NCBI RefSeq assembly: GCF_032577575.1
Contig: NZ_JAWFVO010000003.1
Coordinates: 122,793 to 186,792, forward strand
DNA from: Veillonella parvula
GTDB taxonomy: Bacteria; Bacillota; Negativicutes; Veillonellales; Veillonellaceae
Reading direction: 5' to 3'
Length of the DNA stretch: 64,000 nt
Of this stretch, positions 15,933 to 38,008 are shown piece by piece (within the stretch, counting starts at the first letter, position 1; each line of letters opens with the position of its first letter). The notes beneath the pieces are model-generated. The model made no database searches and had not been told where the DNA came from. It saw nothing but the letters and a program-made list of their open reading frames with translations. A program made the position numbers and the translations under genes.

Positions 15933-15977
15933 TCTTAGTTTTTTTGAATTTGGTTATATTAGATTTCATCCTATACT
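15933..15977 (+). promoter_or_regulatory. Shared non-canonical promoter motif (copy 1 of 6)
   Basis: TCTTAGTTTTTTTGAAT-N22-TATACT; same spacing at 23439, 25134, 25228, 26759, 37954. Confidence 0.75.
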
Positions 15978-16103
15978 AAAGATGTAGCCGATAAGCGGTA
16001 ATAATTTTAATATGCTTAGGGTATCTTAGTTTTGTATTAAATCATTGGTAGCTTGTTGGGGATTGTAGAAAATATGTATAGTGTTAGGTATAGGAGGTAG
16101 TAT

Positions 16104-16133
16104 ATGAACGTTAATAGGAATGGATTATTCTAA
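16104..16133 (+). CDS. Micro-ORF MNVNRNGLF (9 aa)
   Basis: TAGGAGGT RBS. Confidence 0.45.
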   Translation: MNVNRNGLF

Positions 16134-16170
16134 TAATAGTATATTTAGTTGTAATGATAGGAGGGATGTT

Positions 16171-16239
16171 ATGTCGCCTTTAGCAGTGGATTCTGCAGTA
16201 GCAGTGTTAGTAGCGGTGCTTGATGCACTTGAAGAGTAA
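16171..16239 (+). CDS. Hydrophobic micropeptide MSPLAVDSAVAVLVAVLDALEE (22 aa)
   Basis: AGGAGG RBS; hydrophobic core with acidic tail. Confidence 0.6.
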   Translation: MSPLAVDSAVAVLVAVLDALEE

Positions 16240-16287
16240 TTTTATTTATGTATGTTGATCGGTTAAAGTTTGTAAGGTGGTGATATT

Positions 16288-16320
16288 TTGAGTAAGTATA
16301 GAATTGGATTAGAAAAGTAA
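16288..16320 (+). CDS. Micro-ORF MSKYRIGLEK (10 aa, TTG start)
   Basis: AAGGTGGTGA RBS; resembles MTCRIGYLKL at 25313. Confidence 0.35.
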   Translation: MSKYRIGLEK

Positions 16321-16540
16321 TTATTTTGTTAAATTGTATAGACAGTTAATCATATGTCCGGCTTCATACTATCTCGAACAGAGCGTAGTAAGTGACCTCG
16401 GGTTTTTGGATTCGTTAAGTTTTAGTACATAGTATTATTGTATAATTGGTGTAGATTTTGATTTGGATACAAGAAAGTTAAAGGACCTAGTGCATAGAGA
16501 TATGTGACTAGGTCCTTTTAATCATATAATTTTATAAATA

Positions 16541-18910
16541 TTAGATACTAGGGGCATGAATGAGTGCTGTTTTATAAATTGTTTCTAGTTGCTTTTTTAA
16601 CGGACTATCATCTGTAATTCGGACTGCACAGCCTAGTTTTAATAAATGTCGTAAGATATCTATTTCCTGGAAGGGAAGATAGCTAACTTCAATGGTAAAC
16701 TCTTCATCGTTGATATCTTTAGCTTGAATTGTATAGTTGCTAAAATAGTTAAAGCAACGATCAACTGCATTATTTGCATCGTGCAAGGTAAATGTTACGG
16801 TTCGCTTTGATTCATCTCTATAGTTAGCATATATAGTTTCTATATTTTCTAGTCGTGGTGCAGCCGTTTTTATGATATTAGATTCATTGCGTAGTGGATA
16901 GTCTAAAAAGGTATCCGTTGCATGGTCATAGGCAATAAGCGTATAGCCATTGCTTCCTACAGAGTATTCTATCCGACAAGGAGATAGCTCCTTATCTTGA
17001 ATCATGATACGTTCGTTATTTTGGATAGCTTGTAAGCACTGGGTGATTACTTGCATTGTTAACGGAGTATCGTTTGTCATGGTTGGAACACGTGTCCATG
17101 ATCCTTTTGGAAAGGTAGTGTCTACAGTTTTTAATTCAGTAGATAATATTTGACATAGCTCTGGTGAAAGCAGCCAGTTAGCTCGAGTATCAGAAATGAG
17201 GTCCTTTAAGAACATTCTTTCAGCATCAGAGATAATAACAAGAGGTAAATCTGGAAGAATAGACTCAACCTCTTCGCCATTTTCATTCGGCTCTACTAAT
17301 GCATCGGCTAGGAATTGCTCATAATCATCATTCCGCAATGTTTTTTTGTATGGGGCTGGCGTGAGCAGCCTACGATGATTAATTAATCCTTCTATATCTT
17401 GTTTTGTATGGACAACACCATTAATTAAGTCTAATTGCAATTGGTATTGTGTCGTAAAGGTAATAGCATTGATATCGTTTAAAACGGATGATACATAGGT
17501 ACCATCTAAGTCTTTGTCTTTTTTAGTTCTGTTATTATCAGATTCTTTTCTTTGGAGTGGATGAAGAAATCGATTAATTTTCTTTCGCTTTTTATATCCT
17601 TCTGGTTCTACAAAATCTATATTTAAAGAGGCGTATAAATTATTGTAGAATTTATCCTTAATACTGGATTTGTTTGTGTATGTAATATATACATAAGGTA
17701 AATAGCTACGTAATTGCGGTAATAATTGTAATGCATCTGGTACTTCTAGTTGCAATTCTATATATTCATCTGTTCTTGAGAGCATTGTTAGTGACTCTTT
17801 GAAATGACGAATAAATTTATCGTAGACCAACTCATAATCTTTTAAGGTCAAGAAGTGAATGATACAAGTATCAAATGTTTTATCTCTTGTTTGTATTTTT
17901 GGTACAGTATTAGTACTGTTATATTTTGTAACCTCAAGAGACTTGATGCGATCAATACGATTCCATTGGATACGTCCATTATTAATACTACATAGCATAT
18001 TTTTATTTTCCCCATAATAGGTTTGTAACGCTAATGGACTAACGATTTCCCTAGGTTTCCCAGATTCATAAAAGGATAGACGCACCTTTTTTTGTCGATG
18101 TAAGGCATCGGCTAAAGGGTAGAAAATATCTCCATCAATTACATTATTTGGATTATTATCCTTGAAAGAAAAATATGTATTATTAAAGTCATAGTACATA
18201 GACTTTTGTTGGTCTTTTAAAGAAAAGTCATTAATTAAATACATAATTTTCTTGAGTAAGATATGACCTGCTGCTGAAGTAATAGAAACATTAGTATAAA
18301 AGAATACTGCCATTGCTAGCTCTTGCAACTGCTGTTTTGATAGTTCCTCTATAATAGTTGGTTTTATTGAATATGTATAGCCTTTTGTGAGCTCTGTTTT
18401 GGTGATAGCACCTAAAATTTCTAAAGTCTTTACTTGGCGTTGAATATATTGTTGGTCAATAATGCAAGGGGGCTCTTGTTTTTTATTTCGTTGCTCATAT
18501 AGGTTTTTTACTAAATCAATATAGTGATCCAAGTATGGTTCTTGGTTTAAATTAGTATATAAATCTGTAATAGTTACATCATCGTTTGCTCCAATATATG
18601 ATAAGATGCAGAGCTGTACATAAATTTGTTCTGGAACGGCAGCATATAATTCATATAAATTGTTAAGATAATTATAGCCATCTATAAAATCATCTTTTGC
18701 CAAATGATGAATGGATGTTTTCCCAATTCTTTGCGTGTAAATGTGACGTATGATATCAAAATAATCAAGGCGACGAATCACATCGTCGTGCTGACTTTCT
18801 TTGATACCACGAACTGTTGCTTTACCTCTATTATGGTTCCCGAAGGTTAAGCTGCGGATAAATTGGCGCATACTAGCTAAATCATTTAGATAATTAGTTG
18901 TTGTTGCCAT
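16541..18910 (-). CDS. Large double-WYL transcriptional regulator (PafBC-fusion-like)
   Basis: Two WYL-like segments (ALHRQKKVRLSF..VSP..RIDRIKSLEV; AIQNNERI..SPCRIEY..YTLIAY) and WCX-like ends (LLKLGCAVRI...LK); RBS AAGGGAG before ATG 18910. Confidence 0.75.
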   Translation of the reverse strand: MATTTNYLNDLASMRQFIRSLTFGNHNRGKATVRGIKESQHDDVIRRLDYFDIIRHIYTQRIGKTSIHHLAKDDFIDGYNYLNNLYELYAAVPEQIYVQLCILSYIGANDDVTITDLYTNLNQEPYLDHYIDLVKNLYEQRNKKQEPPCIIDQQYIQRQVKTLEILGAITKTELTKGYTYSIKPTIIEELSKQQLQELAMAVFFYTNVSITSAAGHILLKKIMYLINDFSLKDQQKSMYYDFNNTYFSFKDNNPNNVIDGDIFYPLADALHRQKKVRLSFYESGKPREIVSPLALQTYYGENKNMLCSINNGRIQWNRIDRIKSLEVTKYNSTNTVPKIQTRDKTFDTCIIHFLTLKDYELVYDKFIRHFKESLTMLSRTDEYIELQLEVPDALQLLPQLRSYLPYVYITYTNKSSIKDKFYNNLYASLNIDFVEPEGYKKRKKINRFLHPLQRKESDNNRTKKDKDLDGTYVSSVLNDINAITFTTQYQLQLDLINGVVHTKQDIEGLINHRRLLTPAPYKKTLRNDDYEQFLADALVEPNENGEEVESILPDLPLVIISDAERMFLKDLISDTRANWLLSPELCQILSTELKTVDTTFPKGSWTRVPTMTNDTPLTMQVITQCLQAIQNNERIMIQDKELSPCRIEYSVGSNGYTLIAYDHATDTFLDYPLRNESNIIKTAAPRLENIETIYANYRDESKRTVTFTLHDANNAVDRCFNYFSNYTIQAKDINDEEFTIEVSYLPFQEIDILRHLLKLGCAVRITDDSPLKKQLETIYKTALIHAPSI

Positions 18911-19078
18911 TATTGACTCCCTTTTAAATATGTACATTCTCGACTGTACAAAATAATTCTTAATTATGAATATAACATGATACAATATAAAATGTAAGGA
19001 TAAAATTCGAGGTTAGGTTCTGATAATGCACGGATGACCAAGTGTAGTTAATCAATTAATGTAGGTTTGGTGAAAGCT

Positions 19079-21223
19079 ATGGCAATTCATAATATATTTT
19101 TATCTTTTTTGAGTAAGGTGTCTAATACGAGTATAAAGACGATTGTAAATACAGATATGGAAGATGCTATTCGTAGTAGCATTGCCACGAATGAGTCGTC
19201 TTTGAAATATATTTTATACCATACATGGAAGGATGAAAAAACAAGAGATATATCCTTTGATAAGATATATTTATTATGTACTGATGGTGTAATGGCACAT
19301 CAAAGTAATAGCCCATCATCTTATGATATCTTTGTTAATCAAATGTGTAAGTTTTATAACGTGATGGGCCACAATGAGCAGGCCTTTTTAGATGCTCTTG
19401 ATCATGTCCCATGTGGTACAGACTTAGATGATATTAGTCGTATTAAGTCTAGCATCATTGAGATGTCAAAGAAGATTCTTGACTTTAAAGATACTTTCAC
19501 CAATGATAAAGATGAGGTCCGCCTCTATATGGATATCACTGGTGGCCCACGCAATGCAGCTATGATTCTCCTTGTTATTAGTAGACTGCTCGCCTATCAT
19601 GGTATCATTGTTGATGATGTATATTACTCTGGTTATAAGGAGATTGAGAACGGCCCAGGAGAAATTACAGTTCATAAAGTGCTAGATATTTATGAGCTAT
19701 TTGATATTATTGCAGGATTTGAAGAGTTTAAACTATTTGGTAGTGCCAAAAAATTAAATACTTACTTTAAGTCACCTGAAAATATTGGAACAGGTAATAT
19801 TGAATCGACTGCTACAGCTACAAAAAAATTGCTAAAAGCTATGGACAGCTTTTCAGAAGCTATTAATATTTCAAGCCGTGGAGCATTTGAAAAATCTATA
19901 GCTCGTCTTGATGATAGCTTAGCCTTAGTACGTAGCATGGCAAATAATACAGATAACAATAAGACCTTTGACCAAGAATTGATTGAATTATTGCACAAAC
20001 CTATTGAGCAGTCGTATACTACACTTTTACAACATCATCGCAATCATGCTTCTGATGAACTAGCCTATATTGACTGGTGTTTAGATCATGATTATTTACA
20101 ACAAGCACTTACCTTATTTTGTGAATATGTACCGGAATACGCAGTAGATAAAGGTATTATAGAGTGTAATCCACTTGTGTTTAATGCATATTATGAAGAT
20201 ACCCTACAGAATAAAGAAAAGAGATTGCTACAAGCTGCTATAAAAGCATGGAATAGAGCGGGGAATCATATCCAGTTTAGTACATTTTATAATGTAGTCA
20301 TGCCCGATCATGATAAAAAAACTTCTGAAAAAGATGTACGGTCTATGCCTATGCGCTTATTCAATTCTATTAATAACGCTCGTATGCAAAACTTGGCGGC
20401 TATGATAAATACAAAAAAAGATAAAGTAGCTCCTAATATCGATAAAGTAATTACTTATTATATTAAATTCGTAAGAAACGAAAAAAAGAAAATACAAATT
20501 GTTGAAAGAGACCTCCAAAAGCAGAAAGAACGTATTCATCTGATGGTGGATGAAGAAACTACTAAACTTAGAGAAAAATGTGAGGTTCTTTTAAATCAAT
20601 ATGAGTTTACACTTTATTTACAAGACGATAGATATGCTGAAAATTATACATTATTAGAATATATCTCGTTTTTGCAAGATATTCTTGAAAGTGCAGAGAA
20701 TGTAGAAACCTTTAATAATATCTTAGAGTCATTACGTAAAAATATAATATCTGAAGTCTTAAGTAAAGAGGAATTTAAAGAGTATATTATTTGTGATGCA
20801 GATAATTCTTCATTTAGGTTGAAAAAAACAAGTATGTTAGCGCGTAATGTGGTGTGTAATGCTATATTAAATCATTTAATTGCAGAAAAGAAATATAAGG
20901 CTTATAAAAGTTTGATTATGCATCAGTTACCAGATACTAAAGATAGTGCGGTTACTACGGCTGAGCTTTTGTTATCACAACAAAAGCCTAATCATAGAGG
21001 GGTTCCTTTATTTGAGGTCTCTGGTGTGTACATTCCACATGTTCTATTAGATGATATAGCTAAGACTATGAAGTTTATTGAACAATACTTTGAGATAAAA
21101 AAAGCACGTAATGATAGTAATCATGCAAATAAAGAAGCATTATGTAAATATACTACTTCACAAGAATTGCTAGATGAGATGCGTAAATGTGTGGCAATGG
21201 CAAGAGAATTGAGTAGAAAATAG
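19079..21223 (+). CDS. CARF-HEPN (TM1812/Csx1-Csm6-like) cOA-activated nuclease
   Basis: CARF motif YMDITGGPRN; HEPN RNDSNH. Confidence 0.85.
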   Translation: MAIHNIFLSFLSKVSNTSIKTIVNTDMEDAIRSSIATNESSLKYILYHTWKDEKTRDISFDKIYLLCTDGVMAHQSNSPSSYDIFVNQMCKFYNVMGHNEQAFLDALDHVPCGTDLDDISRIKSSIIEMSKKILDFKDTFTNDKDEVRLYMDITGGPRNAAMILLVISRLLAYHGIIVDDVYYSGYKEIENGPGEITVHKVLDIYELFDIIAGFEEFKLFGSAKKLNTYFKSPENIGTGNIESTATATKKLLKAMDSFSEAINISSRGAFEKSIARLDDSLALVRSMANNTDNNKTFDQELIELLHKPIEQSYTTLLQHHRNHASDELAYIDWCLDHDYLQQALTLFCEYVPEYAVDKGIIECNPLVFNAYYEDTLQNKEKRLLQAAIKAWNRAGNHIQFSTFYNVVMPDHDKKTSEKDVRSMPMRLFNSINNARMQNLAAMINTKKDKVAPNIDKVITYYIKFVRNEKKKIQIVERDLQKQKERIHLMVDEETTKLREKCEVLLNQYEFTLYLQDDRYAENYTLLEYISFLQDILESAENVETFNNILESLRKNIISEVLSKEEFKEYIICDADNSSFRLKKTSMLARNVVCNAILNHLIAEKKYKAYKSLIMHQLPDTKDSAVTTAELLLSQQKPNHRGVPLFEVSGVYIPHVLLDDIAKTMKFIEQYFEIKKARNDSNHANKEALCKYTTSQELLDEMRKCVAMARELSRK

Positions 21224-21283
21224 GATATTTAATATAAGAGGCTATAGATAGTAATAATCTATAGCCTTTTAGTTTTTATGAAA

Positions 21284-23302
21284 TTATTGTTGATTATACG
21301 TACAGATATACTCACGAACCTCACGAATATCATTAAGACATTGTTTTAACTCTCTTTTTATGTCTTCACTTTCAATAAACTGGCCCCGCTTTTCTTCACG
21401 TGCATGTGCCGTATCATTTCGACTACCTTTTAATGTTCTATACAGGTTTAATATGCGAGCCACTTGTGTTATTTTTTCTGGATTGCTTTTTAATACTGAA
21501 TTAAGTGTGAGTCCATCTATACCATAAAGTTGATGGGGAAATAAATCTATTGGATATTGATATGATACAAAATTAGCAAATAGAAAACGATATATATCAT
21601 CATTGTTTGAGTTCGTGAAGATTGAAATAAATGCATCTCTTACCTTAAAGAGTTTATTAGTGTCGTTAAGTGTAATTTCATATTGATCATTAACTGTTAC
21701 AACATCGCTAGGTAAATCTTTAATTTCTTTTAATTGATGTACAAGTGCAGCAGTAAAATATCTTCTAATATCTTTACTGAACTCATTTATACCTACAATA
21801 GATTTGGTATTTATACCTATATTACTGATAAGTCGCAGTAGCTTACTAGGCACATTAACATTATTATTGGTAAACGTTTTGTATTTCAAATAATTATGTG
21901 GCTCTTTTTCTGCTTCTTTTAAGATTATTTGATTAATATCGTTTATTAGTTGCTCTTCAAATTTAGGGTATTGTGTATCCTCTCTAGTAATGTTAGTGCT
22001 AATGTTATTTTTCTTGTTTTTTAATGTTCGTTGGATAATTTGCTTAGACTCTTTTGAAAAATCACCACTAAAGTATTTCAGTAATACGCTTTTTATTTTA
22101 TTATTAATCTTAGTCGCTCTATTGTTTACGATTTCCATTGTTTTGGCGGTATACTCATTAATCGTATTAAAGTTCTCCATAGAGGCACTCAATTCATTGT
22201 CTGAGTCTGTAGGGAAGATTGTGTCGTCTAAAATAATCATTTTAGATTCTAAAATAGCACGAGGTACAAATTCAGCGAATAGTGCTAAGGCTTGCTGTAG
22301 ATAACCATTAGCTAGGCACCAATCAATGTATGCTAAATCGTCTTCTTTATTAGCTAGCACTGTTTTATAGTTATTTTGAATTTTGCCACTCATTAATTTG
22401 AGTGCCTCAATTTCAAAGTTTTTATGGTTTTCCCTATTATTTGCAGGTATTTCTTGTTTAGAGGATTCGATATCTGTTAAAAGTTTATGAATGTCCTCCA
22501 TGGATCTTTGGAATATACCGCGACTAGATAGACGAACGGCTTCTGAAAAATCTCCCATGCTAGAGATTAGTTCTTTGATTTGGACATCGGGGTTATCTAA
22601 GGTGTTTACATAGTTTTTTAATGTATCAACACTACCAAATTGGTTGAACTCAGCAAATCCTGTAATCATATCGTAAATATTATAGATGGAGTTCCCTTCA
22701 TATACTCGCACTATGCTATTGTTATTTGCATTTACATTGGCATATAAAATAGATCCAATTTCAATACCTTGAAAAGCTACTAGTCTAATGATGGCAATCA
22801 TCAGCATAATCGCAGTTCGTGGGCCACCAGATAAGTCTACATGTAAGATAACCCTGTCGTCAGATGACTTGCTTTTGTAATATTCCATTATAGCTTGAGA
22901 CATATCTATGATGCTGTCCTTTAGATTGTCTATATAGTCGATGTCACCACAATCTATATAATTAATTGTTTCTGGGTCCCACGTAATAGGTATACTGGTT
23001 TTATTGATATAATCACACATTTGCTCTTCAAATACGTTTAGGCTTGATATGGTAGATTCTTTAAACGTATTCTCCATTTCTGGTGATTTAAAAAAGAATA
23101 GCTTATCTAATTTGAAAGCAGAGTTCTCTTTTCTTTTATTATGTAAAAGATACTTTAAAGCGGATTCATTGGTTTGACGGATGACATCAAAGGGAGCTAT
23201 CTCAGTAAGATTAACAACTGTTTTTTCTAGCTTTTGCGGATTATATGGATTATCTTTCGTATGTAAGGTGCTTAAAAATGTTAGGTAAATATGATGTTCC
23301 AT
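21284..23302 (-). CDS. Second CARF-HEPN nuclease, paralog of 19079-21223
   Basis: HVDLSGGPRT; TNESALKY; YIDWCL..YLQQAL; HEPN RNDTAH. Confidence 0.85.
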   Translation of the reverse strand: MEHHIYLTFLSTLHTKDNPYNPQKLEKTVVNLTEIAPFDVIRQTNESALKYLLHNKRKENSAFKLDKLFFFKSPEMENTFKESTISSLNVFEEQMCDYINKTSIPITWDPETINYIDCGDIDYIDNLKDSIIDMSQAIMEYYKSKSSDDRVILHVDLSGGPRTAIMLMIAIIRLVAFQGIEIGSILYANVNANNNSIVRVYEGNSIYNIYDMITGFAEFNQFGSVDTLKNYVNTLDNPDVQIKELISSMGDFSEAVRLSSRGIFQRSMEDIHKLLTDIESSKQEIPANNRENHKNFEIEALKLMSGKIQNNYKTVLANKEDDLAYIDWCLANGYLQQALALFAEFVPRAILESKMIILDDTIFPTDSDNELSASMENFNTINEYTAKTMEIVNNRATKINNKIKSVLLKYFSGDFSKESKQIIQRTLKNKKNNISTNITREDTQYPKFEEQLINDINQIILKEAEKEPHNYLKYKTFTNNNVNVPSKLLRLISNIGINTKSIVGINEFSKDIRRYFTAALVHQLKEIKDLPSDVVTVNDQYEITLNDTNKLFKVRDAFISIFTNSNNDDIYRFLFANFVSYQYPIDLFPHQLYGIDGLTLNSVLKSNPEKITQVARILNLYRTLKGSRNDTAHAREEKRGQFIESEDIKRELKQCLNDIREVREYICTYNQQ

Positions 23303-23617
23303 AATATGGCTCCTAGAGAATCGAGAATTAAAAATGAAGCTTTTATGAATACTATACCAAATTTTATATAAATTACATAGAGCCTAGCCCATAGTAAAAT
23401 AATAGATATATAAGCGAATCTTAAAATTTATGTTTACGTCTTAGTTTTCTTGAATAGGGATATATGGGTTCACATTTTATAATAACCTTGTAACCTAAAT
23501 AAAATACCTTTTGATTCATAAAACCAAAGATTCGTTCTACTTTTATGAACTCATAGGTAGACCGGATTAGTTCATACTTTAGATGGTTAATTTAAGTTCA
23601 TATAATAAGGAGGTAAC

Positions 23618-23650
23618 ATGTGTAGAAAGATTAGTCGTGTAGATATGTAA
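23618..23650 (+). CDS. Micro-ORF MCRKISRVDM (10 aa)
   Basis: Perfect TAAGGAGGT RBS. Confidence 0.45.
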   Translation: MCRKISRVDM

Positions 23651-23697
23651 TTGTACTTTTGTTGTTTCAGGCTTTTAGTATAGGAGGAGGTGTTTGT

Positions 23698-23748
23698 ATG
23701 GAACTATTTGTTGAGTTTGGTTTAGTTCATGTTTGTGTTGAGGAGTAA
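23698..23748 (+). CDS. Micropeptide MELFVEFGLVHVCVEE (16 aa)
   Basis: AGGAGGAGGTG RBS; acidic tail. Confidence 0.55.
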   Translation: MELFVEFGLVHVCVEE

Positions 23749-23780
23749 TTTTGATCATTATAATTGAATCTGATGTTAAT

Positions 23781-23820
23781 TAGACCTATTCATATGATGT
23801 CTCATATGAGTAGGTCTTTT
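23781..23820 (+). terminator. Intrinsic terminator closing a micropeptide cassette
   Basis: AGACCTATTCATATGA/TCATATGAGTAGGTCT plus U tract; homolog at ~25901-25936. Confidence 0.75.
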
Positions 23821-24122: not shown

Positions 24123-24953
24123 GTTGCAACAGTACTTACCGTTTACGGTATTGAAACATAAAGGTCAAGTAATTTTCTGTATTGGTTCTGCAGAGTTGCA
24201 ACAGTACTTACCGTTTACGGTATTGAAACAAAGCTCATCAGCATTAATAAGTCGGATAGTATATTTATGTTGCAACAGTACTTACCGTTTACGGTATTGA
24301 AACTTATGATAACTTTGGCCATCTAGTTCTGATTCATTCCCAGTTGCAACAGTACTTACCGTTTACGGTATTGAAACTTCTTGAATTGCTGGGGTTAAAA
24401 TGCCTTTAATGAGTTGGTTGCAACAGTACTTACCGTTTACGGTATTGAAACTGATAGTCTCCTTTGCAAAATAGTACCGGATTTTTTAGTTGCAACAGTA
24501 CTTACCGTTTACGGTATTGAAACACGAAAAATTAAATTGTTCAATAGTATTTTTCTACGTGTTGCAACAGTACTTACCGTTTACGGTATTGAAACGCTTT
24601 GATTTCGGTAGGTATGCTTCTTTATATTTATGGTTGCAACAGTACTTACCGTTTACGGTATTGAAACATGAACAGTCTCTTCGGATGCATGTATTTTCTT
24701 TTCGGTTGCAACAGTACCTACCGTTTACGGTATTGAAACTTATATACGAATTTCATAATTATTCTCCTCTACCGGTTGCAACAGTACCTACCGTTTACGG
24801 TATTGAAACATTCCATTTAAAGATGCCTCTGTATCGTCAATACACACAGTTGTAACAGTACTTACCGTTTACGGTATTGAAACGTTTTAAGACGATGTGT
24901 TTCTTTTTCGCCCATATCATGCAAGTTGCAACAGTACTTACCGTTTACGGTAT
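24123..24953 (+). CRISPR. Array 4, family A (GTAC variant), 12 repeats/11 spacers; last repeat interrupted
   Basis: GTTGCAACAGTACTTACCGTTTACGGTATTGAAAC. Confidence 0.97.
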
Positions 24954-25050
24954 GCGCCGAAGGGTGCAAGACAGCAGAGGAGCAAAGCGACGATGAGGTC
25001 CGCACATCTCAAGTACCTGAACGAAGTGAAGGTAAAACAAGGGTGATAAG
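24954..25050 (+). repeat. Repeat-embedded ~100-nt element, array 4 copy
   Basis: Near-identical to 26275-26378 and 26471-26574; followed by a degenerate repeat remainder. Confidence 0.9.
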
Positions 25051-25312
25051 ACAATAGTACTTACTGTTTATGATTGTGTATTTTCATATTTAATGCAAAA
25101 GAGTGAATCTAAAGATCCACTCTTTTTTTTGTGTCTTAGTTATTTTGAATATGGACTTGTCGCTTTTCATTTTATAATGATTTTGTAGCCCAAAGGGAAA
25201 TACTTGAATTATAGAGATGGTCGTTCGCCTTAGTTTTTATGAATTCAATTGTATCTTTGATAAGGTTATACTATGGATAGTTAATTTAGTCATATGAGTT
25301 GGGAGGTAATGA

Positions 25313-28719: not shown

Positions 28720-28911
28720 TAGTAGGGGCCGATGTATATGTAAAAATATGGTATCAGCCTATACATTCGTGTAATTATATACAATTTATAAAATATGAAA
28801 AATCTTTCATAAATCATGTATTTATGAGTGATTTTTTTTATACGATTTGCTATTATTAAAGATGAATAATAAATGAATTTTGTTTTGTAGTTTGTATAGT
28901 GAGGAGTGGTT

Positions 28912-29277
28912 ATGTTTATCAATCATACGAATCATCCTTCTCAATATTGGTCGGATGAACAGTTGGCAGCAGCTCATCAATATGGTGAGGTGGTAGATAT
29001 ACCATTTCCCCTCATTGATCCAGCGTTACCATCTGGTGAAATTGGGCAGCTAGTACAGGAATATGCAGGGAGGATTATAAGTCTTAATCCACAGGCTGTC
29101 TTGTGCCAGGGGGAATTTGTATACTGTCACGCTTTAGTGGAACGACTATTAGCAGTGGGAATTACTGTATTAGCGGCCACTAGTGAGCGCTTGGTGAGTG
29201 AATCTTACGAAGCAGGCATAAATGAGAAAATCGTCAACTTTCAGTTTGTTCAATTTCGAGAATATTGTCATTTATAA
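28912..29277 (+). CDS. Csx20/Csx15-like small protein, putative cOA ring nuclease
   Basis: NHTNHPS..W, IPFP.IDP, QGEF, AATSER, FVQFREY; immediately upstream of cas10. Confidence 0.65.
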   Translation: MFINHTNHPSQYWSDEQLAAAHQYGEVVDIPFPLIDPALPSGEIGQLVQEYAGRIISLNPQAVLCQGEFVYCHALVERLLAVGITVLAATSERLVSESYEAGINEKIVNFQFVQFREYCHL

Positions 29278-29307
29278 ATGTTGTGTTAATAGGTAAGGAG
29301 TGAGCCT

Positions 29308-30909
29308 ATGCAAGTAAATGCCATATTGTTTGATGTGCAGTCTATTCAAAAGTATATTTTTGCTAACAATAAACTGAAGGCCAATGTTGGAGCATCGTTT
29401 ATTGTGGATAGATTGTTTGAGGATGTACTGTGTAAAGAAATTATCAATAAGCTTGGGGTAGAGGCTGACACTATATCCTGGTTGACACGTAGTGACAGCA
29501 TTACATCTCTTCCAAAACCTATATACGTTGCGTATATTGGCGGCGGTAATGCTCTGGTTCTTGTAGATGATAAACATGAAAGTTTGGTTCAAGATATTGT
29601 TAAGAAATTTACGACTCAAGTTTTGGTGCAGTATCCAGGTCTAAAAGTAGGTGCCACAACTGGTTACATTACTCTTGATGGAACACAGTTTTCTGCAGAT
29701 CTCGGCAAATTATATAAACAACTGAAAGCTAATCAATTTGCATTGAATCTAATTGTGCATCCTGCCAATACAGGTTTGACAACCATTTGTGATTTCAGTG
29801 GTGATGTAGCAGATACAACGCAAAGCTTTGGTGATGACAAGCGCTTAGTTGCTACATCCTTCACAGCTAAGTTTGAAGCCTTTGAGGCTGCGAATAGCCG
29901 TTTAAAAATAGACTTATTTGGTACGGAAACGACTGATTGGGTATTTCCATCTGAATTTGAAGAGTTAGGTCAAAACCAATCTACCGAAAAGAGTAAAACA
30001 GGTATCAATGATATTGCTATCGTTCATATCGATGGTAATAACATGGGTGCTCACTTTAGACAATGTAAAACATTAGAAGAACGCAGTGCTCTTTCTAAAC
30101 GTGTAGCTACAAAGACATTGGAGAGCTTTAAAGCATTGGTGCAATGGATTATTGATAAATACGATATTCTTGATGAAAACCTCGAATTGTCTAAGAATAT
30201 GTTGCCAATCCGTCCGATTATCATTGGTGGCGATGATATTACTTTTATTTGCAATGCTCGTATTGCAGTGCAAGCCTCTCACTATTTAATGCAACAACTC
30301 TTGAGTGATAAGAACGGCATATCCATCTCTTCTTGTGCTGGTATTGCTGTAATTCCTACGTCTTACCCATTCTTTAGAGGCTATGAAATGGCAGAGCAGC
30401 TTTGCGATAGCGCTAAATCTAAAATGCGTGAATATAATGCGGTGCACAAGGTTAATGAGTCTTGTTGGATGGATTTTGCCTTCCTTCATGGTGAAACAGC
30501 ACCTACCTTGGAGCAGTTTTTCGCTAATGAATATAGTAGCTTAACCGGTAATATGCATTTTGGGCCATATCAAGTGTTTAATGATAATATTGAGGCTGAA
30601 AAAGATATATTTGCTCTTTCAAAATTATTAGAGTGTACACATCAATTTATTTTGGTTAAGGATAAAGCATATTCAGGTGATTTGCTGGCTCATAATAAGG
30701 TCAAAGAATTGCGTTCTGTATTACAAGATAATGAACATATGTGGACTGTATTCCTCGAGCAGCTGCGCAACACTAATAAATTTATGCCTACTGTATTTGG
30801 TTGGGATGCTTTCAAAGAAAAACTGTGGGCTAAGGTAAATGGTAAAATGCGTACGCCATATGTTGATGCCATAGAATTAATGGATTATGTTTTGCCTGGA
30901 TTGGAGTAA
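29308..30909 (+). CDS. cas10: Cas10, type III-D; no HD domain, intact GGDD
   Basis: FDVQSIQKYIF, YIGGGN, HIDGNNMG, IIGGDD. Confidence 0.93.
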   Translation: MQVNAILFDVQSIQKYIFANNKLKANVGASFIVDRLFEDVLCKEIINKLGVEADTISWLTRSDSITSLPKPIYVAYIGGGNALVLVDDKHESLVQDIVKKFTTQVLVQYPGLKVGATTGYITLDGTQFSADLGKLYKQLKANQFALNLIVHPANTGLTTICDFSGDVADTTQSFGDDKRLVATSFTAKFEAFEAANSRLKIDLFGTETTDWVFPSEFEELGQNQSTEKSKTGINDIAIVHIDGNNMGAHFRQCKTLEERSALSKRVATKTLESFKALVQWIIDKYDILDENLELSKNMLPIRPIIIGGDDITFICNARIAVQASHYLMQQLLSDKNGISISSCAGIAVIPTSYPFFRGYEMAEQLCDSAKSKMREYNAVHKVNESCWMDFAFLHGETAPTLEQFFANEYSSLTGNMHFGPYQVFNDNIEAEKDIFALSKLLECTHQFILVKDKAYSGDLLAHNKVKELRSVLQDNEHMWTVFLEQLRNTNKFMPTVFGWDAFKEKLWAKVNGKMRTPYVDAIELMDYVLPGLE

Positions 30910-30911
30910 GT

Positions 30912-31559
30912 ATGTACACATTAACTATTAAATTATTGTCGCCAACGATGCTTATGTCTGGCCAAGGCGATGTCAACACGGACAGCACTATCGTCCATGA
31001 TCGTTATGGAATTCCTTTTATTCCTGCTAAACGTGTGCGTGGTGTTTTATATGAAAGTGCCATTGAAGTAGCTGAAATGATGTATGCCGTAGGTTTGAAT
31101 ACCTTTACTATTGATGATGTAAAGGTATTGTTTAATCGCCTTGAAGGTGCAGAGGATAACCCTAGATTATCTATTTCTAATTTAACAATTGCTGATTATG
31201 ACGTGGTAGCTAGTGAATTAGCGGCTCTTGAAGAGCAATATCCAGCAGTGTTTACGAAGGAACGTGTCCTCGAAGAGTACACATCTATGCGTTATTACAC
31301 ATCTATCGATCAAGTAACAGGTACAGCACTAGAGGGGACGTTGCATAACTCTCGCGTTCTCAATAGAGGTCTTGCTTTCAGTGGTCAAATCGATGTGGAA
31401 GATATGACGGAATTAGAACGATTGATTTTAGCATGTGCAGTGCGTAATTTGACTGGCATTGGTGGTAAACGTAATCGTGGCTTTGGTCAAGTGGAATGCA
31501 TAATTGATGACACATCTTTTGATTTAGAATCTTTAGGGGGTACATTATGGAACAAGTAA
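30912..31559 (+). CDS. csm3: Cas7/Csm3-like RAMP
   Basis: PFIPAKRVRG, IGGKRNRGFG. Confidence 0.85.
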   Translation: MYTLTIKLLSPTMLMSGQGDVNTDSTIVHDRYGIPFIPAKRVRGVLYESAIEVAEMMYAVGLNTFTIDDVKVLFNRLEGAEDNPRLSISNLTIADYDVVASELAALEEQYPAVFTKERVLEEYTSMRYYTSIDQVTGTALEGTLHNSRVLNRGLAFSGQIDVEDMTELERLILACAVRNLTGIGGKRNRGFGQVECIIDDTSFDLESLGGTLWNK

Positions 31560-33124
31560 ATATTACGATTACCGTTAAATCCCCAACGCTTATTGCGAAT
31601 TCCTCCACGGCAGGTGTATTAACATCTACACGTGGCTCTATTGATGGTCGAGTATTGCGCGGTCTTTTTGCTTCTCAGTTTATTTCCTCTCATAAACTTG
31701 GTAGAGAAGCTCATAAAAACCAGGATTTTATGAAGTTATTCTATGGTGACTTACGATTTGTTGCTGCTTATAAGCATACGCCAAAAGGTACGTCCTTCCC
31801 AGCACCGTTGAGCTTACAAAAGAACAAAAATGCAGAAGGCTATGCCAGTGATGATGCCGTAGACTTCTACACGGGTAAAGATCTTTTGGGTTTTAAAGGT
31901 GTTAAAGGTTTTGTCATTGTAGATGGCAAAGAATGTAGTCCTGTACAAATTGAAACGGCTATTAAATTACATATGTCTCGTTCCTTAGAGCAAGAACGTG
32001 TGCAAGGTCGCAGTAAAGATGGTAATATCTTTAATTATGAATACATTGAGCCAAATCAAGTATTTGTAGGTTCTGTGGTGGGGCCTAAAGCTGCATTAGA
32101 AGAGTTTGTTCGTCAATTCCCTAAACAGTTGGATTGTCATATCGGTCGCTCTCGTCGTACTGAATATGGTCATTGTCTCGTTGAAATTGGTGATATTACA
32201 GTTGTTCCAACGCCAGTAAATATTGGTAACTCTGTATATGTGCGACTTCATACGCCATTAGTGTTAGGCAATGAATCTATTAGTCATGTAGTAGCACAAG
32301 CAGTACAACCGATTGGTTCAGATATCTCTGTAGGTACTGTGTTTGCCTCTTATCAAGAGGAGCAAAGCTTTAATAGTATTTGGGGCGTTCGTAGTAGTGC
32401 TGAAGCGTCTGCATCTGCTGGTAGTATCGTAGAGCTTGTAAAGGAATCTGGTTGGTCTCAAGATGATCTAGATAAACTACAAAATATCTTGTATAACGGC
32501 ATGGGTACTCGACTTCAAGAGGGCTATGGTCAAGGCCGTTTATGGACTCCTGGCGAGTTCAAGATGGTGAAATTAGGTAAGCAAGAAGCACCTAAGCTCA
32601 AATCTTTACATACGCCAACACAAGAAATTGCTAAAAAGGTTTTGGAAAAACAAGTTATTGTAAATGCTCGTTTGCGTGCTGCTCACGATGTAGATACATA
32701 TATTAAACGTACTATGTCTAGAAGTGGTGTATCTAAGCATTTTGCATCTGTACTATTGACTGAACTTGGTACAAATCATGAAACTGGTCATAAGCAATTA
32801 CAACAATTCTTGGAAGACAAGAAGGCAGAAGGACAAAAGAAAAATGAGCCTAGAGTTATTGAAAAGAACTTGCGTGAGTTCCATTTAGAGCATGCTTATA
32901 CGCGGAGTGAAACAAAGCGTGTTAACTTGATGGAGTATATCATTGATTTTGATGCTCCTACATTAGTGGCAGCTTGTTTGGCAAAATCTGGTGAAAGTGG
33001 AACATACTACGAAATTCCTGCTGAATTAGTCGATATAGTAGGGCTCGACAAACAAAAACTTTCAAATGTAGTGGCCTACGAATATTGGACATATTTCTTT
33101 AGACATATTAGAAAGATTAAGTAA
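31547..33124 (+). CDS. csx10: Csx10-like Cas5 RAMP with helical (Cas11-like) C-terminus
   Basis: IDGRVLRG, IGRSRRTEYG, GMGTRLQEGYG; ends YWTYFFR. Confidence 0.75.
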   Translation: MEQVNITITVKSPTLIANSSTAGVLTSTRGSIDGRVLRGLFASQFISSHKLGREAHKNQDFMKLFYGDLRFVAAYKHTPKGTSFPAPLSLQKNKNAEGYASDDAVDFYTGKDLLGFKGVKGFVIVDGKECSPVQIETAIKLHMSRSLEQERVQGRSKDGNIFNYEYIEPNQVFVGSVVGPKAALEEFVRQFPKQLDCHIGRSRRTEYGHCLVEIGDITVVPTPVNIGNSVYVRLHTPLVLGNESISHVVAQAVQPIGSDISVGTVFASYQEEQSFNSIWGVRSSAEASASAGSIVELVKESGWSQDDLDKLQNILYNGMGTRLQEGYGQGRLWTPGEFKMVKLGKQEAPKLKSLHTPTQEIAKKVLEKQVIVNARLRAAHDVDTYIKRTMSRSGVSKHFASVLLTELGTNHETGHKQLQQFLEDKKAEGQKKNEPRVIEKNLREFHLEHAYTRSETKRVNLMEYIIDFDAPTLVAACLAKSGESGTYYEIPAELVDIVGLDKQKLSNVVAYEYWTYFFRHIRKIK

Positions 33125-33137
33125 GGAGGACCGTCGT

Positions 33138-34472
33138 ATGTTAAACTCTGCAAGTGTAATAGGGCGGTACACTCTAACTGGTACTGTCAAACTCACAAGC
33201 CCTCTCGTTATTCGAGCTGGTGTTAGTAATGATATTTTAAATGATACTGTAGACGATATTGTAGTAACCTATCACGATGGCCAACCATTCATTCCTGGGA
33301 CATCCTTAGCAGGCGTATTGCGCCAAGCGATTCAAGGCCTTAAACCTGTATCTGAAGATGTATTATTTGGTTCCATTGATGACAAAGGTACACAAAGCGC
33401 ATTACAGATCAATGATATTCCATTAGATAATACAAATATTGTCGTTCGTGATGGCATCTGTATAGACGATGTGCGTGGTGTCACTAAAGATGGCGCAAAA
33501 TATGACTTCGAAGTCATCGAGTCTGGTGCGACTGGTCGATTGCGTATCGATTGCGTGATTCGTCAATGCCACGAAAATCAAGCGGATAAGATTGAGCGAG
33601 CTCTTGTAGCGTTAGCTAATCTACTTAAAAACGGCATCTCCATTGGTGCTCGTACGGTGAATGGTTTAGGTCGCATAACATGTAAAGATATTTCTTTAGA
33701 GCATTATGACTTCACTAAGCCAGAACATGTAAAAGCGTGGTTATTACGCAAAGTTGGTACATCTGTTGCTATTCCTGAGCAACGCATGATTGCTGAAAAA
33801 GACCTTGTTATAGATATGGAATGCTATTTAGAAGATACTGTTCTTATTAAATCTATCTTCGAAGAGGCTTGGGAAGATAAGTCCGTGGCTCTCTTTATTC
33901 CAGGTACATCAATTAAGGGCGTATTACGTCACCATTGTAGCTGTATACTACAGGTATTAGGCCGTAGCAATCAAGCGGTGGATGCACTCTTTGGCTATAG
34001 CATTGAAAAAACCAATGAAAGCCGTAAAGGTCGTGTTATGGTAGATGAAGTTTACTTTGATAAATCTTTTACACAAGAGGAGCAACCTCGCATTCGCATG
34101 GACCGCTTTACAGGCGGTGCCATGAATGGTGCTTTATTCCAAGACCATCCTGTACGTAAGGGGAAAGGTAAAGAGTTAGTATTCCCATTGTGTATGACTG
34201 TTAAAGACTGTAGTGATAGTGAAGCGGGCCTTGTGCTACTCCTTGTGAAAGATCTTATGACAGGTCAAATTACGTTGGGTGCTAATCGTACAATCGGTTA
34301 TGGCCGCATTAAAGGTAATTCTGTTACGGCTCAATATCATGGTGAACGTTATAGTATCGATGATACTGGTAAGGTTACGGAAGGTGAAGCTACTAAACTT
34401 GAAGCTTTGGTTCAAGCGTTACATCAATCTACAGAAGATACAATGTTAGCTAAGGAGGGCACTCATGAGTAA
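33138..34472 (+). CDS. Tandem Cas7-Cas7 RAMP
   Basis: Two IPGTS.G motifs and two G-loops (IGARTVNGLG, LGANRTIGYG). Confidence 0.85.
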   Translation: MLNSASVIGRYTLTGTVKLTSPLVIRAGVSNDILNDTVDDIVVTYHDGQPFIPGTSLAGVLRQAIQGLKPVSEDVLFGSIDDKGTQSALQINDIPLDNTNIVVRDGICIDDVRGVTKDGAKYDFEVIESGATGRLRIDCVIRQCHENQADKIERALVALANLLKNGISIGARTVNGLGRITCKDISLEHYDFTKPEHVKAWLLRKVGTSVAIPEQRMIAEKDLVIDMECYLEDTVLIKSIFEEAWEDKSVALFIPGTSIKGVLRHHCSCILQVLGRSNQAVDALFGYSIEKTNESRKGRVMVDEVYFDKSFTQEEQPRIRMDRFTGGAMNGALFQDHPVRKGKGKELVFPLCMTVKDCSDSEAGLVLLLVKDLMTGQITLGANRTIGYGRIKGNSVTAQYHGERYSIDDTGKVTEGEATKLEALVQALHQSTEDTMLAKEGTHE

Positions 34473-35028
34473 ACAATTACATAGCCATGAAGGTGTATAT
34501 ACACGTACTAGCGGTACATGCGGCCCTACAGCTAATGTGAACGTACTAGCTGTAGTAAATGAATACATGAAGCAAGAGGGCCTAGTTATTACTTGGTCTG
34601 TCCATGAAGTTAAATGGGGCTATTACAAGCAAGGTAGTTTCCAATTTTCTGATGGTACAACTGACGTAGACTTGGCGTATCTACAAGATATGCGTATCTT
34701 TAATGAAACAGAAGAGTTGCGTCTCACTATACAACATGGTGAGATTGTATATCGCTATATTAACGATGAAGCTGGTGAACCTGTAACTTTTGTTGACTCT
34801 TCCTCTCGTATGATTGGTGAAGTTGATGCAGGTCGTACTCAGTTGAACCGAGCAGAAGGATTTACAAACTTAGTTGATACAGGACGTAAACTTTCACAAA
34901 CTATCCCTGTGTCCACAACAAAACAATACTGTTATTTAACGACACGCAATTACATTGGCTATTTAGATAATCATCAAGCGAGCTATACAGATTATCGATA
35001 TGTCAAAATCGTAGATAAGGAGGTCTAG
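34465..35028 (+). CDS. csx19: Csx19
   Basis: YLQDMRIFNETEELR, RNYI.Y, DYRY; position in the III-D operon. Confidence 0.8.
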   Translation: MSKQLHSHEGVYTRTSGTCGPTANVNVLAVVNEYMKQEGLVITWSVHEVKWGYYKQGSFQFSDGTTDVDLAYLQDMRIFNETEELRLTIQHGEIVYRYINDEAGEPVTFVDSSSRMIGEVDAGRTQLNRAEGFTNLVDTGRKLSQTIPVSTTKQYCYLTTRNYIGYLDNHQASYTDYRYVKIVDKEV

Positions 35029-35029
35029 T

Positions 35030-37042
35030 ATGGCTGGTAAAGGTAAAAGTAAAAATAGACATGCTGCTAGTGCGGCCTTCTTTGCACGAAATAATCCAGG
35101 AATGGATGTTGAAAAAGTAGCTAATGAAAGACATTCTGGCGGAAATCGTGGTGGTGGGCAAAATCGTTCTGGTGGCTATAATAATTCCTACAATAATCAA
35201 GGCGGTAATCGTAGTGGTGGTAACAGCAAATACCCAAGTGAGCCAGCAAGTGCAGCGTATAATTTTGTACGCTTGCCAGAGCATGTAATTCCAGCTGAGT
35301 TTTACAATGGTCATTTTGAAGGAGTTACGAAAGACGTGTTGAAGGCTTATTGTGATCATGTACAACAAGCTGATATACATACAGGTTATATAGACCTTAC
35401 CATTACAACTGAAACACCTCTATTCATTGGTGGACCGTCTAAACAAGACGAGGATACACCACTTGAATTTTATGGTGGCCAAGATAATCCTACAATTCCG
35501 GGGACAAGCCTTAAAGGTATGGTAAAACAAATCTTCAAGATTGTTACAGCTAGTAGCTTTAGACCATACCAACGGGGAACGGGTCTTGGTGATTTCGAAG
35601 ATAGATATCTTTATTTCCGTGATTTTGCAAGCTCTATTAAATCCCTCAAAGAATACTATGCTGCTCGTATGGTGGGAAAGGAAATAAATGCAAAAGGTGA
35701 AGAAAAGGCTGCTACAAAAGCGACACCTGGCTTTATCATTCAGACTGTAGATAATAACTATTTTGCTATACCTAGTGAATCTAGAAAAATGTCTTATTCT
35801 GACGATTATGAAATGCAGAAGAAGAAAAATACTCCGTCTATTGATTGGACGGATCAGTATGTAAACATCCATACTGGTAGAATGAATTCTAAAATGTCTT
35901 ATATGCGTATTACTCGACCTGGTAATTTTGAAGGTAAGCGCATTCCGATTCTTCAAGAATGTATCGACAGTTATAAAGACGATAAAAACCGTGGTACATT
36001 AAATCTATTGGATAAAAAAGTCGGTAAATCTGGTGATGCAGCCAAGAATTATACTCGTTGTAATGATGTTAAGTTTGTAGTACCATGTTTCTTCTCTGAA
36101 AAAGATGGTATTGTAGAGCATTTTGGTCATGGTCGATTCTATCGTATTGCATATGACTTGAAAATTAGCGACCACTTACCAACTACATTAGAGCAACATA
36201 ATAATGGTGTGGATCTTTGTGATAGTGTATTTGGCTATGGCGATAATTGGGCTGGCCGCTTATCCTTCTCCGATGCTCATGTTGTGGGACCTGTGAGAAT
36301 GTGCCAATCTGATTACCCACATCCATTGATGGGGCCTAATCCAACATCCTTTCAATTGTATTTAGAGCAAGATGTAGATAATCACTCCACTTATAACCAT
36401 TGGGGGCATGAAGGGGCATCCATTCGCGGTTATAAAATGTACTGGCATCAACCGTTAGCAAAAGTAAAAGATTGGACTCGTACAGAAGAGGAAAAAGCCA
36501 TTAAAGGTACTCGTAAAATTCGTCCAGTTGATACTGGCGTTACCTTTAAAAGCCGCATTCATTTTGACCGATTAAGCAGCGTTGAGCTAGGCGCATTGTT
36601 GATGTCCTTAGATTTAGATCATTACTCTGGCGGTAATCGTCGTACATACTATAAACTTGGTATGGGAAAATCCATCGGTTTTGGTAGTATTAAACTAGAG
36701 TCTGCTGTAACGGTTTTCGATAGTAAAGAACGCTATGGCAGCCTATTCGGTGGTGATACTTGGAATACTGGAGATAGCACAACTACTCCTAATGAGTATG
36801 TAGATTCTTTCACTCAGTATCGCGATAATGTACTAGGTTCTAACATATCCTCTTATAAAGCGATGCTAGATGATTTGTTCATGATGCTAGATTGGAATAT
36901 TGCTAATGGTCCAAATGCAGCTAAAAACTGGACTGATGGTATTTCTATGATGACCATTAAGAATAATAAAATGGATCCTCGTATCAAATACCGTAGCAAG
37001 CTAGATACACCTAAATCCTTCATCGCAAAGTGGTCTAAATAA
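35030..37042 (+). CDS. Cas7 with large insertion (TIGR03986-like)
   Basis: AAYNFV, IPGTSLKG, IRGYKMYWH, KLGMGKSIGFGSI. Confidence 0.88.
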   Translation: MAGKGKSKNRHAASAAFFARNNPGMDVEKVANERHSGGNRGGGQNRSGGYNNSYNNQGGNRSGGNSKYPSEPASAAYNFVRLPEHVIPAEFYNGHFEGVTKDVLKAYCDHVQQADIHTGYIDLTITTETPLFIGGPSKQDEDTPLEFYGGQDNPTIPGTSLKGMVKQIFKIVTASSFRPYQRGTGLGDFEDRYLYFRDFASSIKSLKEYYAARMVGKEINAKGEEKAATKATPGFIIQTVDNNYFAIPSESRKMSYSDDYEMQKKKNTPSIDWTDQYVNIHTGRMNSKMSYMRITRPGNFEGKRIPILQECIDSYKDDKNRGTLNLLDKKVGKSGDAAKNYTRCNDVKFVVPCFFSEKDGIVEHFGHGRFYRIAYDLKISDHLPTTLEQHNNGVDLCDSVFGYGDNWAGRLSFSDAHVVGPVRMCQSDYPHPLMGPNPTSFQLYLEQDVDNHSTYNHWGHEGASIRGYKMYWHQPLAKVKDWTRTEEEKAIKGTRKIRPVDTGVTFKSRIHFDRLSSVELGALLMSLDLDHYSGGNRRTYYKLGMGKSIGFGSIKLESAVTVFDSKERYGSLFGGDTWNTGDSTTTPNEYVDSFTQYRDNVLGSNISSYKAMLDDLFMMLDWNIANGPNAAKNWTDGISMMTIKNNKMDPRIKYRSKLDTPKSFIAKWSK

Positions 37043-37845
37043 TGCTAGGCACAGTTACTATTGCTTTAGAAGCTCAAAATAGAGGCAGCTTGCCTGCCTT
37101 TCCTGGGCGATATCTACATGCAGCACTCTTCTCTATTCTTAGTCATATAGATGCAGATGAGGCTACATGGTGGCATGATATGGAAGGAATAAAGCCTTTC
37201 TCACTACAATTATCCTTTAAAGAGCTTCGTCAAGATAATATCATTCGATGTGGGGATATCTTATATTTACATGTTTCTGTATGGCATAGTGAGTTATGGG
37301 GATTAGTAGAAGGTATATCTGAGGGCTTAGAAGTAGTCTTTGGTAGACTACGAACTACAATTGTAGGGGTTCGTTACGGGGCACCGTTTAATCTACCGTT
37401 GAAAGTAGATAATGAACTGGAGCTCATCAGTCGGCGCCTTTCTGCAAAACAGGTGAGACGTATTACTTTTGAAGTTATGATGCCTACATCCTTTAATGGG
37501 ACACATGGAGATATAACCTTTCCTACAGTAAGTCTTATTTTTTCCTCACTTGTAGACAAATGGAATGCTGGTGATATGACCGATGCATTAAATAAGGATT
37601 TAATACGGACGGTCGTTGAGAAGGTTACTCTTGAACGCTGGGAAGGTCATACAAAACGCGTGTTTTATGGTCGTGATCGTGGCCTTACTGGTTTTGTAGG
37701 CAAGTTTACCTTTAATATTTCTAAACTTACAGAAGAGGAAAACCAACTCATTACTATTTTGGCACTCTTCGGTCAGCACAGTGGCATAGGTAGATTATCT
37801 AGCCAAAGTCTTGGTCAAGTACGTGTTACATTACAAAACAAATAG
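37042..37845 (+). CDS. cas6: Second Cas6
   Basis: YLHAALF, KPFS, PTSF, GFVG, GIGRLSSQSLG. Confidence 0.88.
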   Translation: MLGTVTIALEAQNRGSLPAFPGRYLHAALFSILSHIDADEATWWHDMEGIKPFSLQLSFKELRQDNIIRCGDILYLHVSVWHSELWGLVEGISEGLEVVFGRLRTTIVGVRYGAPFNLPLKVDNELELISRRLSAKQVRRITFEVMMPTSFNGTHGDITFPTVSLIFSSLVDKWNAGDMTDALNKDLIRTVVEKVTLERWEGHTKRVFYGRDRGLTGFVGKFTFNISKLTEEENQLITILALFGQHSGIGRLSSQSLGQVRVTLQNK

Positions 37846-38008
37846 GACATATAGTCCATACAACTAAATTCTATGGGAGCATAGATATAGTTACTCTCAA
37901 TGAAAGAAGCCTTAAAGGCATCTGTTATAGATGTCTTTGAGGCTTCTTTTTGTTCCTAGTTTTTTTGATTATCTCCATTTTTGGATTACTCGTATAATGA
38001 ACACACAA

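Follow-up and report, generated by a model that had tools for sequence, protein, structure and literature searches.

Six promoters of a Veillonella parvula defence island share an element that a PafBC-like double-WYL protein probably reads

What controls six promoters that carry the same upstream element with exactly equal spacing to the −10 hexamer? They lie in a 64-kb stretch of Veillonella parvula DNA (the window), a defence island flanked by chromosomal genes in a 2.2-Mb genome (2,198,608 nt). The island also encodes a 789-aa protein with two WYL domains (16541–18910, minus strand). Judged by sequence comparison, the six sites are probably the operators of this protein, which would act as a PafBC-like pseudo-heterodimer and activate a regulon local to the island. 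It is very likely that the 789-aa protein reads the element. If it does, analogy with characterised regulators makes it likely that it acts as an activator. Single-stranded DNA or RNA as its ligand, again by analogy, is only somewhat favoured.

An earlier note on this DNA had placed TAGTT exactly 36 nt ahead of the −10 at six promoters, and all six coordinates were reproduced. TAGTT starts at 15936, 23442, 25137, 25231, 26762 and 37957, and TATAAT or TATACT follows exactly 36 nt on at each. The element is 17 nt long and asymmetric, with the consensus TCYTAGTTWTYYTGAWT; at each of the six sites it ends 22 nt short of a near-perfect −10. A motif scan places all six promoters on the plus strand. 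Promoter 1 spans 15933–15977 (element 15933–15949, TATACT 15972–15977) and promoter 2 spans 23439–23483 (element 23439–23455, TATAAT 23478–23483). Promoter 3 (25134–25178; element 25134–25150, −10 25173–25178) is followed 94 nt on by promoter 4 (25228–25272). Promoters 5 and 6 span 26759–26803 (element 26759–26775, −10 26798–26803) and 37954–37998 (element 37954–37970, −10 37993–37998). The consensus as first written fits five of the six sites; the site at 26762 has a C at one W position. The reported lack of a −35 at 17 nt was confirmed, since the best match at 16–19-nt spacing has at most three of six positions at these promoters. Unlike them, the four CRISPR array leaders in the window read TTGACG-17-TATAAT. 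The 3′ end of the element is TTGAWT in four of the six sites (4/6 positions to TTGACA), which resembles a −35 but stands at a 22-nt spacer.

The combination is specific to the island. The pattern TAGTT-N4-TGAWT-N22-TATAMT occurs six times in the genome, always inside the window, so it is not common genome-wide. The motif half alone has 28 genome matches; TAnnMT lies at +36 in six of them, and no other offset between 20 and 55 has it in more than two. When a matrix was built with one site left out, only one to six genome positions scored as high as the omitted site, all with a −10 at +36. TAGTT with TATAMT alone is not enriched (14 at +36, 2–13 at other offsets genome-wide), and the TGAWT half is therefore needed. 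Generic promoter scans returned shuffled counts (76 versus 73.5; 25 versus 28.1), and no LexA-type box was found near the six sites. Pairwise spacer identity among the sites is 23–64%. The pairs 23442/25137 (64%), 26762/37957 (55%) and 15936/23442 (55%) look paralogous, which suggests fewer than six independent origins. The real test therefore lies in relatives.

Homologues of the 789-aa protein (38–100% identity) were found in 8 of 82 genomes of the genus, the window genome included. All eight carry the element, with 6, 9, 6, 1, 3, 4, 10 and 4 sites, 43 in total; the survey pattern had been slightly widened once the sites of one relative, G035, were known. For the earlier note, a motif common in genomes lacking the WYL gene would have told against its proposal. 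Only three of 74 such genomes have it, at one site each. In G029 and G072, at one and the same locus of the chromosome, the lone site precedes a peptide cassette plus a single repeat; in G099 it precedes a truncated shosT. None of the three genomes gave a WYL-pair match, and from their surroundings the lone sites look like island remnants. With a matrix built on the six window sites, all 35 matches of at least 19 bits in the relatives' regions have TATAMT at +36; these regions were chosen around known matches, and motif matches without a −10 would have been reported too. The consensus over 52 sites in 21 spacer lineages is again asymmetric, and both the element and the −10 carry high information. 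All 21 lineages have C(−2) and T(+6), though the pattern did not impose them. The claim that the intervening 22 nt are not conserved holds as well: most of the spacer has near-zero information over the 21 lineages, except a T at +21 (17/21). Tandem promoter pairs about 88–95 nt apart recur in G069, G077 and G097.

The proposed reader consists of an extra N-terminal domain (1–85), a winged helix-turn-helix (wHTH; about 91–184), WYL (254–331), WCX, a linker, a predicted wHTH, WYL (619–685) and WCX. PADLOC WYL profiles match it (E 3.7e-13). Pfam and NCBIfam gave no WYL match for the window protein itself; several homologues carry Pfam WYL or WCX. Among 196 relatives, many correspond to one half only: some, of about 420 aa, match the first half and others, of about 320 aa, the second. 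A model built from a 69-row alignment reached a predicted local distance difference test score (pLDDT) of 90.5 and a predicted template modelling score of 0.92, whereas the single-sequence fold was unusable (pLDDT 35). In structure searches the model from the alignment comes closest to 6SJ9, the natural fusion of PafBC (E 2.8e-16, Z 14.8, 386 residues aligned over 92–788, root-mean-square deviation 18.6), and next to DriD, to PafBC on polymerase, to CapW and to BrxR. These matches bear out the double-WYL identity proposed earlier, and the model supports a PafBC-like fusion with an extra N-terminal domain. In the structure search residues 91–184 match many winged helices. Residues 1–85 are better conserved in the family than the next domain (37% versus 21% mean column identity), and in the model they form a helix-helix-helix-hairpin with winged-helix-like topology. 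No Pfam, PDB-sequence or profile match identified this region as a winged helix, and the fold searches barely covered it. The first WYL domain retains R303 and the R318-I-D-R321 loop; the second shows no such loop. PafBC has this arginine loop between strands 4 and 5 of both its WYL domains, and the arginines are required (PMC6789036).

Does the element follow this protein beyond the genus? At E ≤ 1e-10 a profile of the C-terminal half matched 89 genomes among 401 of the class, the weakest of them probably through other WYL proteins; at 1e-25 it matched 20 among 401 of the phylum. We took 51 distant loci and set aside two with a window-type element (G276, G322) before counting, leaving 49. In the distant loci the two halves are adjacent genes or fused, and they stand beside type III-D with csx1, rtcB, a DUF1848 operon, a helicase or shosTA. 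The window-only matrix ranks +36 first of 22 offsets at 6, 7 and 8 bits, with 38, 27 and 19 matches against means of 24.9, 12.3 and 7.1 (maximum elsewhere 12 at 8 bits); since the loci share ancestry, p-values of this test are nominal. Once refined on the first 29 loci, a matrix found 8 matches at +36 in the 20 held-out loci against a mean of 1.0 elsewhere (10 bits).

The distant elements vary in sequence, and include TCACAGTTTTTTTGACA, TCGCACTTTTTTTGACA and TCCTACTTTTTCTGRCA among others. The TCYTAG type is restricted to one clade of fused proteins. Several variants end in an exact TTGACA, 22 nt before the −10. At six loci from five families where the WYL pair is divergent from an rtcB RNA-ligase operon (L117, L116, L119, L121, L123 and L126), an alignment made without any matrix has an invariant 21-nt block, TCGCAAACTTTTTTTAATGAT, which begins TCGCA. 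A −10-like hexamer follows at +36 in five of the six and at +37 in one. G136 carries a second copy farther on. The variant pattern of one other family is absent from all 60 of its genomes without a WYL match. Gene and element also occur together in G016, G322, G171 and G136, where no cas10 match was found. The tie of the element to the WYL gene, as the earlier note had it, is upheld by co-occurrence in the genus and by a spacing that is kept beside distant homologues, also where cas10 was not found. A collection-wide scan for the variants returned 86 stretches: 24 have WYL or island genes, and 62 scattered singletons were taken as background. One variant lies beside a second, broken WYL pair at L170 with no cas gene nearby. 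A viral scan gave five singleton matches, and the one inspected had no visible link. At L091 in G335 (12990–18975) two tandem WYL pairs flank cas1-cas2, with two element variants in one island. An unannotated gene of 300 aa and a DUF1848 gene recur as the divergent target of WYL pairs (L078, L079, L094, L170) and are a candidate defence or repair module.

Several results weigh against this assignment. Kinship of the genomes and linkage of the sites to the island make the genus counts look more independent than they are. A looser window-only pattern matches once each in 7 of 58 genomes that lack the gene, and five of these matches are a single orthologous site. At 5 bits the +36 excess over the 49 distant loci vanishes (57 versus a mean of 48.2). 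Only 19 of these loci have a +36 match with a pattern that was shaped after several of them were known. In the family whose 60 WYL-negative genomes lack it, the variant pattern is present in only 5 of 20 WYL-positive genomes, the five from which it was drawn. No convincing element was found at the WYL-positive type III-D loci of G349, G307, G396 and G142; these may use variants outside our models or may have lost control. By a simple pattern, an R-x-D-R-like loop is present in 18 of 52 N-terminal halves and only 1 of 51 C-terminal halves. Finally, Sll7009 is a WYL protein that represses at a CRISPR locus (PMC4012209).

How might the protein work? The 789-aa chain would be the single-chain form of a two-gene (about 420 + about 320 aa) PafB/PafC-like pair found across Bacillota. 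If transcription starts 6–8 nt after the −10, as predicted, the element lies at about −51 to −35. The six promoters would be weak on their own. A nucleic-acid fragment would bind in the first WYL domain, which keeps the R-x-D-R loop. The winged-helix domains, probably including the conserved extra N-terminal domain, could then dock on the element, and the docked pseudo-heterodimer would recruit or stabilise the housekeeping RNA polymerase holoenzyme. In this way spacer acquisition by cas1/cas2, the ShosTA-like module and the hydrophobic peptide cassettes would be co-induced by foreign or damaged nucleic acid. The regulon appears island-local and portable, and in relatives it would capture nearby defence or repair genes. 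We infer activation and a single-stranded ligand because of the promoter geometry and the precedent of DriD and DdaA. As with PafBC, a pseudo-heterodimer would account well for the asymmetry of the site (PMC6789036 and PMC11804915). More speculatively, and we think it improbable as a whole, WYL pseudo-dimers with three winged helices may work throughout Bacillota: in a new geometry of activation, the extra N-terminal winged helix would read TC-N-YA near −50 and let the housekeeping sigma use the −35-like hexamer, which is out of phase across a 22-nt spacer. Such a portable switch would couple nucleic-acid sensing to spacer acquisition and to membrane-active micro-peptides, an abortive-infection or neighbour-killing arm beside type III-D arrays.

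The alternative that survives best, unlikely as it is, makes the 3′ half of the element (TTGAWT; TTGACA in several distant loci) a true −35 that sigma region 4 contacts across 22 nt. WYL would then bind the TC-N-YA half only and re-register sigma. The exact TTGACA of the distant variants suits this idea, as do the protein's three candidate winged-helix domains and the displacement of sigma region 4 by PafBC (PMC11804915). Yet the first T of the hexamer is C or A in two of the six window sites, the rtcB-type variant has TTTAAT, and a recognition helix of the regulator could read TGA alone. Slightly less likely still is a repressor: the same protein on the same site, working like CapW, BrxR or Sll7009 and released by its ligand. 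WYL regulators beside defence genes are often repressors (PMC4012209), and target products that may be toxic need tight shut-off. The geometry speaks against it: the six promoters lack a −35 at 16–19 nt, which the unregulated CRISPR leaders possess, and a steric repressor would not need an asymmetric site upstream of the core promoter with spacing kept to a single base.

A different reader, be it the local sigma factor or some other protein of the island or the chromosome, is improbable. The earlier note had named a local sigma factor as its alternative, and that gene (7691–8623) flanks the island in the window genome, G016 and G035; the genome also has a second WYL protein and a LexA. We rejected the sigma factor as reader: its gene is present in 72 of 82 genus genomes, most of them without the element, and it does not track the element. 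The −10 is of the housekeeping type, and the WYL gene or pair is the only labelled island gene common to the CRISPR, ShosTA-only, DUF1848 and rtcB loci. Copying of one terminator–promoter block within the island, with no regulator at all, is very improbable: some site pairs are paralogous, at least two sites come after terminator-like hairpins and T is frequent in the element, but element and spacing are kept over 21 diverged spacer lineages. Other families, with homologues of about 20–25% identity, show this geometry again beside them in an altered sequence.

A regulator of the double-WYL protein's kind has counterparts elsewhere. PafBC of Actinobacteria, a natural fusion in Arthrobacter aurescens (PDB 6SJ9; PMC6789036, PMC11804915), likewise has two different wHTH-WYL-WCX modules, split or fused, and a non-palindromic site with a housekeeping −10. 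Its site lies at −26, between the −35 and −10 positions, whereas the site here would lie at about −51 to −35 from predicted starts. PafBC controls genome-wide DNA repair, whereas all six full matches here lie in the island. The protein described here also differs in its extra 85-aa N-terminal domain, an apparently degenerate second WYL loop and its Bacillota host. DdaA of Moraxellaceae (PMC12392091) is a WYL activator with a motif about 50 bp upstream of the start, and it raises CRISPR-Cas and restriction-modification expression. It is a chromosomal DNA-damage regulator on a palindrome (CGWCA-N5-TGWCG), unlike a pseudo-heterodimer on an asymmetric site within the island it controls. In DriD of Caulobacter (PMC13004042) the distance from site to −10 is identical in all targets and no −35 is recognisable, as here; a divergent promoter pointing away from the regulator gene is also shared by many relatives. 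DriD binds as a homodimer to a palindrome overlapping the −35 position, unlike a two-module protein on an asymmetric site. The fixed distance to the −10 without a −35, as in DriD and DdaA, is present here and the single module on a palindrome is absent. The promoter geometry is closer to DdaA and DriD than to the −26 element of PafBC. The system would work like all three, yet without PafBC's −26 element and genome-wide repair regulon and without the single-module palindrome of the other two. CapW, BrxR and Sll7009 are likewise wHTH-WYL-WCX regulators inside defence islands, but single-module repressors; the protein here has two modules and an activator-type promoter geometry.

Which genes stand behind the element? 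All units placed downstream by the earlier note are present: three peptide cassettes, DUF805-cas2-cas1, and the RNA with phosphoribosyltransferase (PRTase), DprA and HAD genes. The cassettes hold open reading frames (ORFs) of 9–35 aa preceded by ribosome-binding sites, many hydrophobic with acidic ends by predicted translation. Cassette 1 (16104–16320, plus strand) has ORFs of 9, 22 and 10 aa, each so preceded; the 22-aa ORF is hydrophobic with an acidic end. Cassette 2 (23618–23817, plus; 10 and 16 aa) and cassette 3 (25313–25932, plus; 10, 35, 19, 17, 26 and 19 aa) end in terminator-like hairpins (23782–23817, 25899–25932). Similar cassettes lie behind the element in G069, G088 and G097 and behind a variant element in G228 and G335. 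Type I toxins by CRISPR arrays in Clostridium difficile (PMC5961336) are small hydrophobic proteins too; here there are several peptides per transcript, mostly with acidic ends, a WYL-type promoter and no antisense RNA identified.

Promoter 5, directly preceded by a terminator-like hairpin (26708–26752, plus), heads a 20-aa peptide, DUF805, a 26-aa peptide, cas2 and cas1 (26845–28719, plus). The type III-D interference operon (28906–37845, plus; csx20, cas10, RAMPs, csx10, csx19, cas6) may be transcribed by read-through from promoter 5, or from a promoter of its own. In G312, G156, G199 and G228 the element directly heads csx20-cas10 or csx1 operons. The convergent Csx1-like CARF-HEPN genes of the window (19067–23302: 19067–21223, plus; 21284–23302, minus) have no element ahead; csx1 is a target in distant loci.

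Promoter 6 also directly follows a terminator-like hairpin (37903–37949, plus), and a structured RNA comes next (38003–38178, plus). Its closing stem is long and covaries, several of its stretches are anti-Shine-Dalgarno-like, and Rfam has no family for it. In eight sequences 13 of 29 pairs changed on both sides, above all 500 shuffles and all slid controls; the fold was derived from the same eight sequences. In relatives the RNA precedes shosT or a CRISPR leader, and it is deleted where shosT is truncated (G099, G097). A role as specific antitoxin of the peptides is unsupported, since its pairing with their start regions is no better than with ordinary genome starts (percentiles 7–76). Downstream (38339–40513, plus) lie a ShosT-like PRTase (38339–39001), a ShosA/DprA-like gene (39003–39950) and a putative HAD hydrolase (39977–40513), its label owed to a Pfam match below cut-off (E 0.006) in a 51%-identical homologue. 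The toxin module expected downstream is ShosTA-like by PADLOC (ShosT E 1.1e-9, ShosA E 3.4e-45). It shares the PRTase toxin and DprA-like antitoxin of ShosTA (PMC11961720). Unlike there, the PRTase (ORF of about 220 aa) has no hydrolase fused N-terminally; the putative HAD gene, of 178 aa, stands apart downstream of shosA, and the structured RNA lies ahead of shosT.

WYL genes beside CRISPR loci were predicted as regulators long ago (PMC4012209). A literature search, with most subscription papers outside its reach, found no description of this WYL pair, element or regulon. PafBC-type pairs have been characterised in Actinobacteria, and the double-WYL family adds another domain and another promoter position. 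For Bacillota it is mostly unsettled how CRISPR adaptation and abortive modules are switched on only on demand; the present analysis names a regulator, gives the exact operator and its fixed geometry, and lists targets, all of which can be tested directly. The element can also serve as a discovery tool: genes behind it in relatives are candidate defence or repair genes, among them the peptide cassettes, the DUF1848 operon, a DUF7017 protein, rtcB and the structured RNA.

The island also holds several CRISPR arrays of three repeat types, a Cas9 locus and a GmrSD-type nuclease, besides the type III-D operon, the two Csx1-like genes and the ShosTA-like pair. Repeats at 24926–25050, 26247–26405, 26443–26600 and 26636–26680 are split by a conserved insert of about 120 nt, also frequent in the arrays of G035. 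Where the copy is complete, a portion of the repeat appears again behind the insert, which is possibly a small mobile element or structured RNA riding in arrays. A second repeat type (9916–13760, 44317–48265) has its own cas6 (14025) and cas1-cas2 (45395–46667); no separate interference operon for it was seen within the window, and two of its arrays flank the GmrSD-type gene. Upstream of an ATPase gene at 6399 that matches PADLOC PDC-S27 lie a 14-nt tandem unit and two neighbouring inverted repeats rich in AT (6031–6175); a related unit is at 8781. The type II-A cas1 ORF (61087–61725) has only 212 aa and covers profile positions 2–220 of 283, and the csn2 ORF at 62561 is also partial; both are possibly broken genes. 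Two ORFs at 40614–42869 correspond to one TPR-like protein of 749–816 aa in relatives, and this gene is probably split in the window genome.

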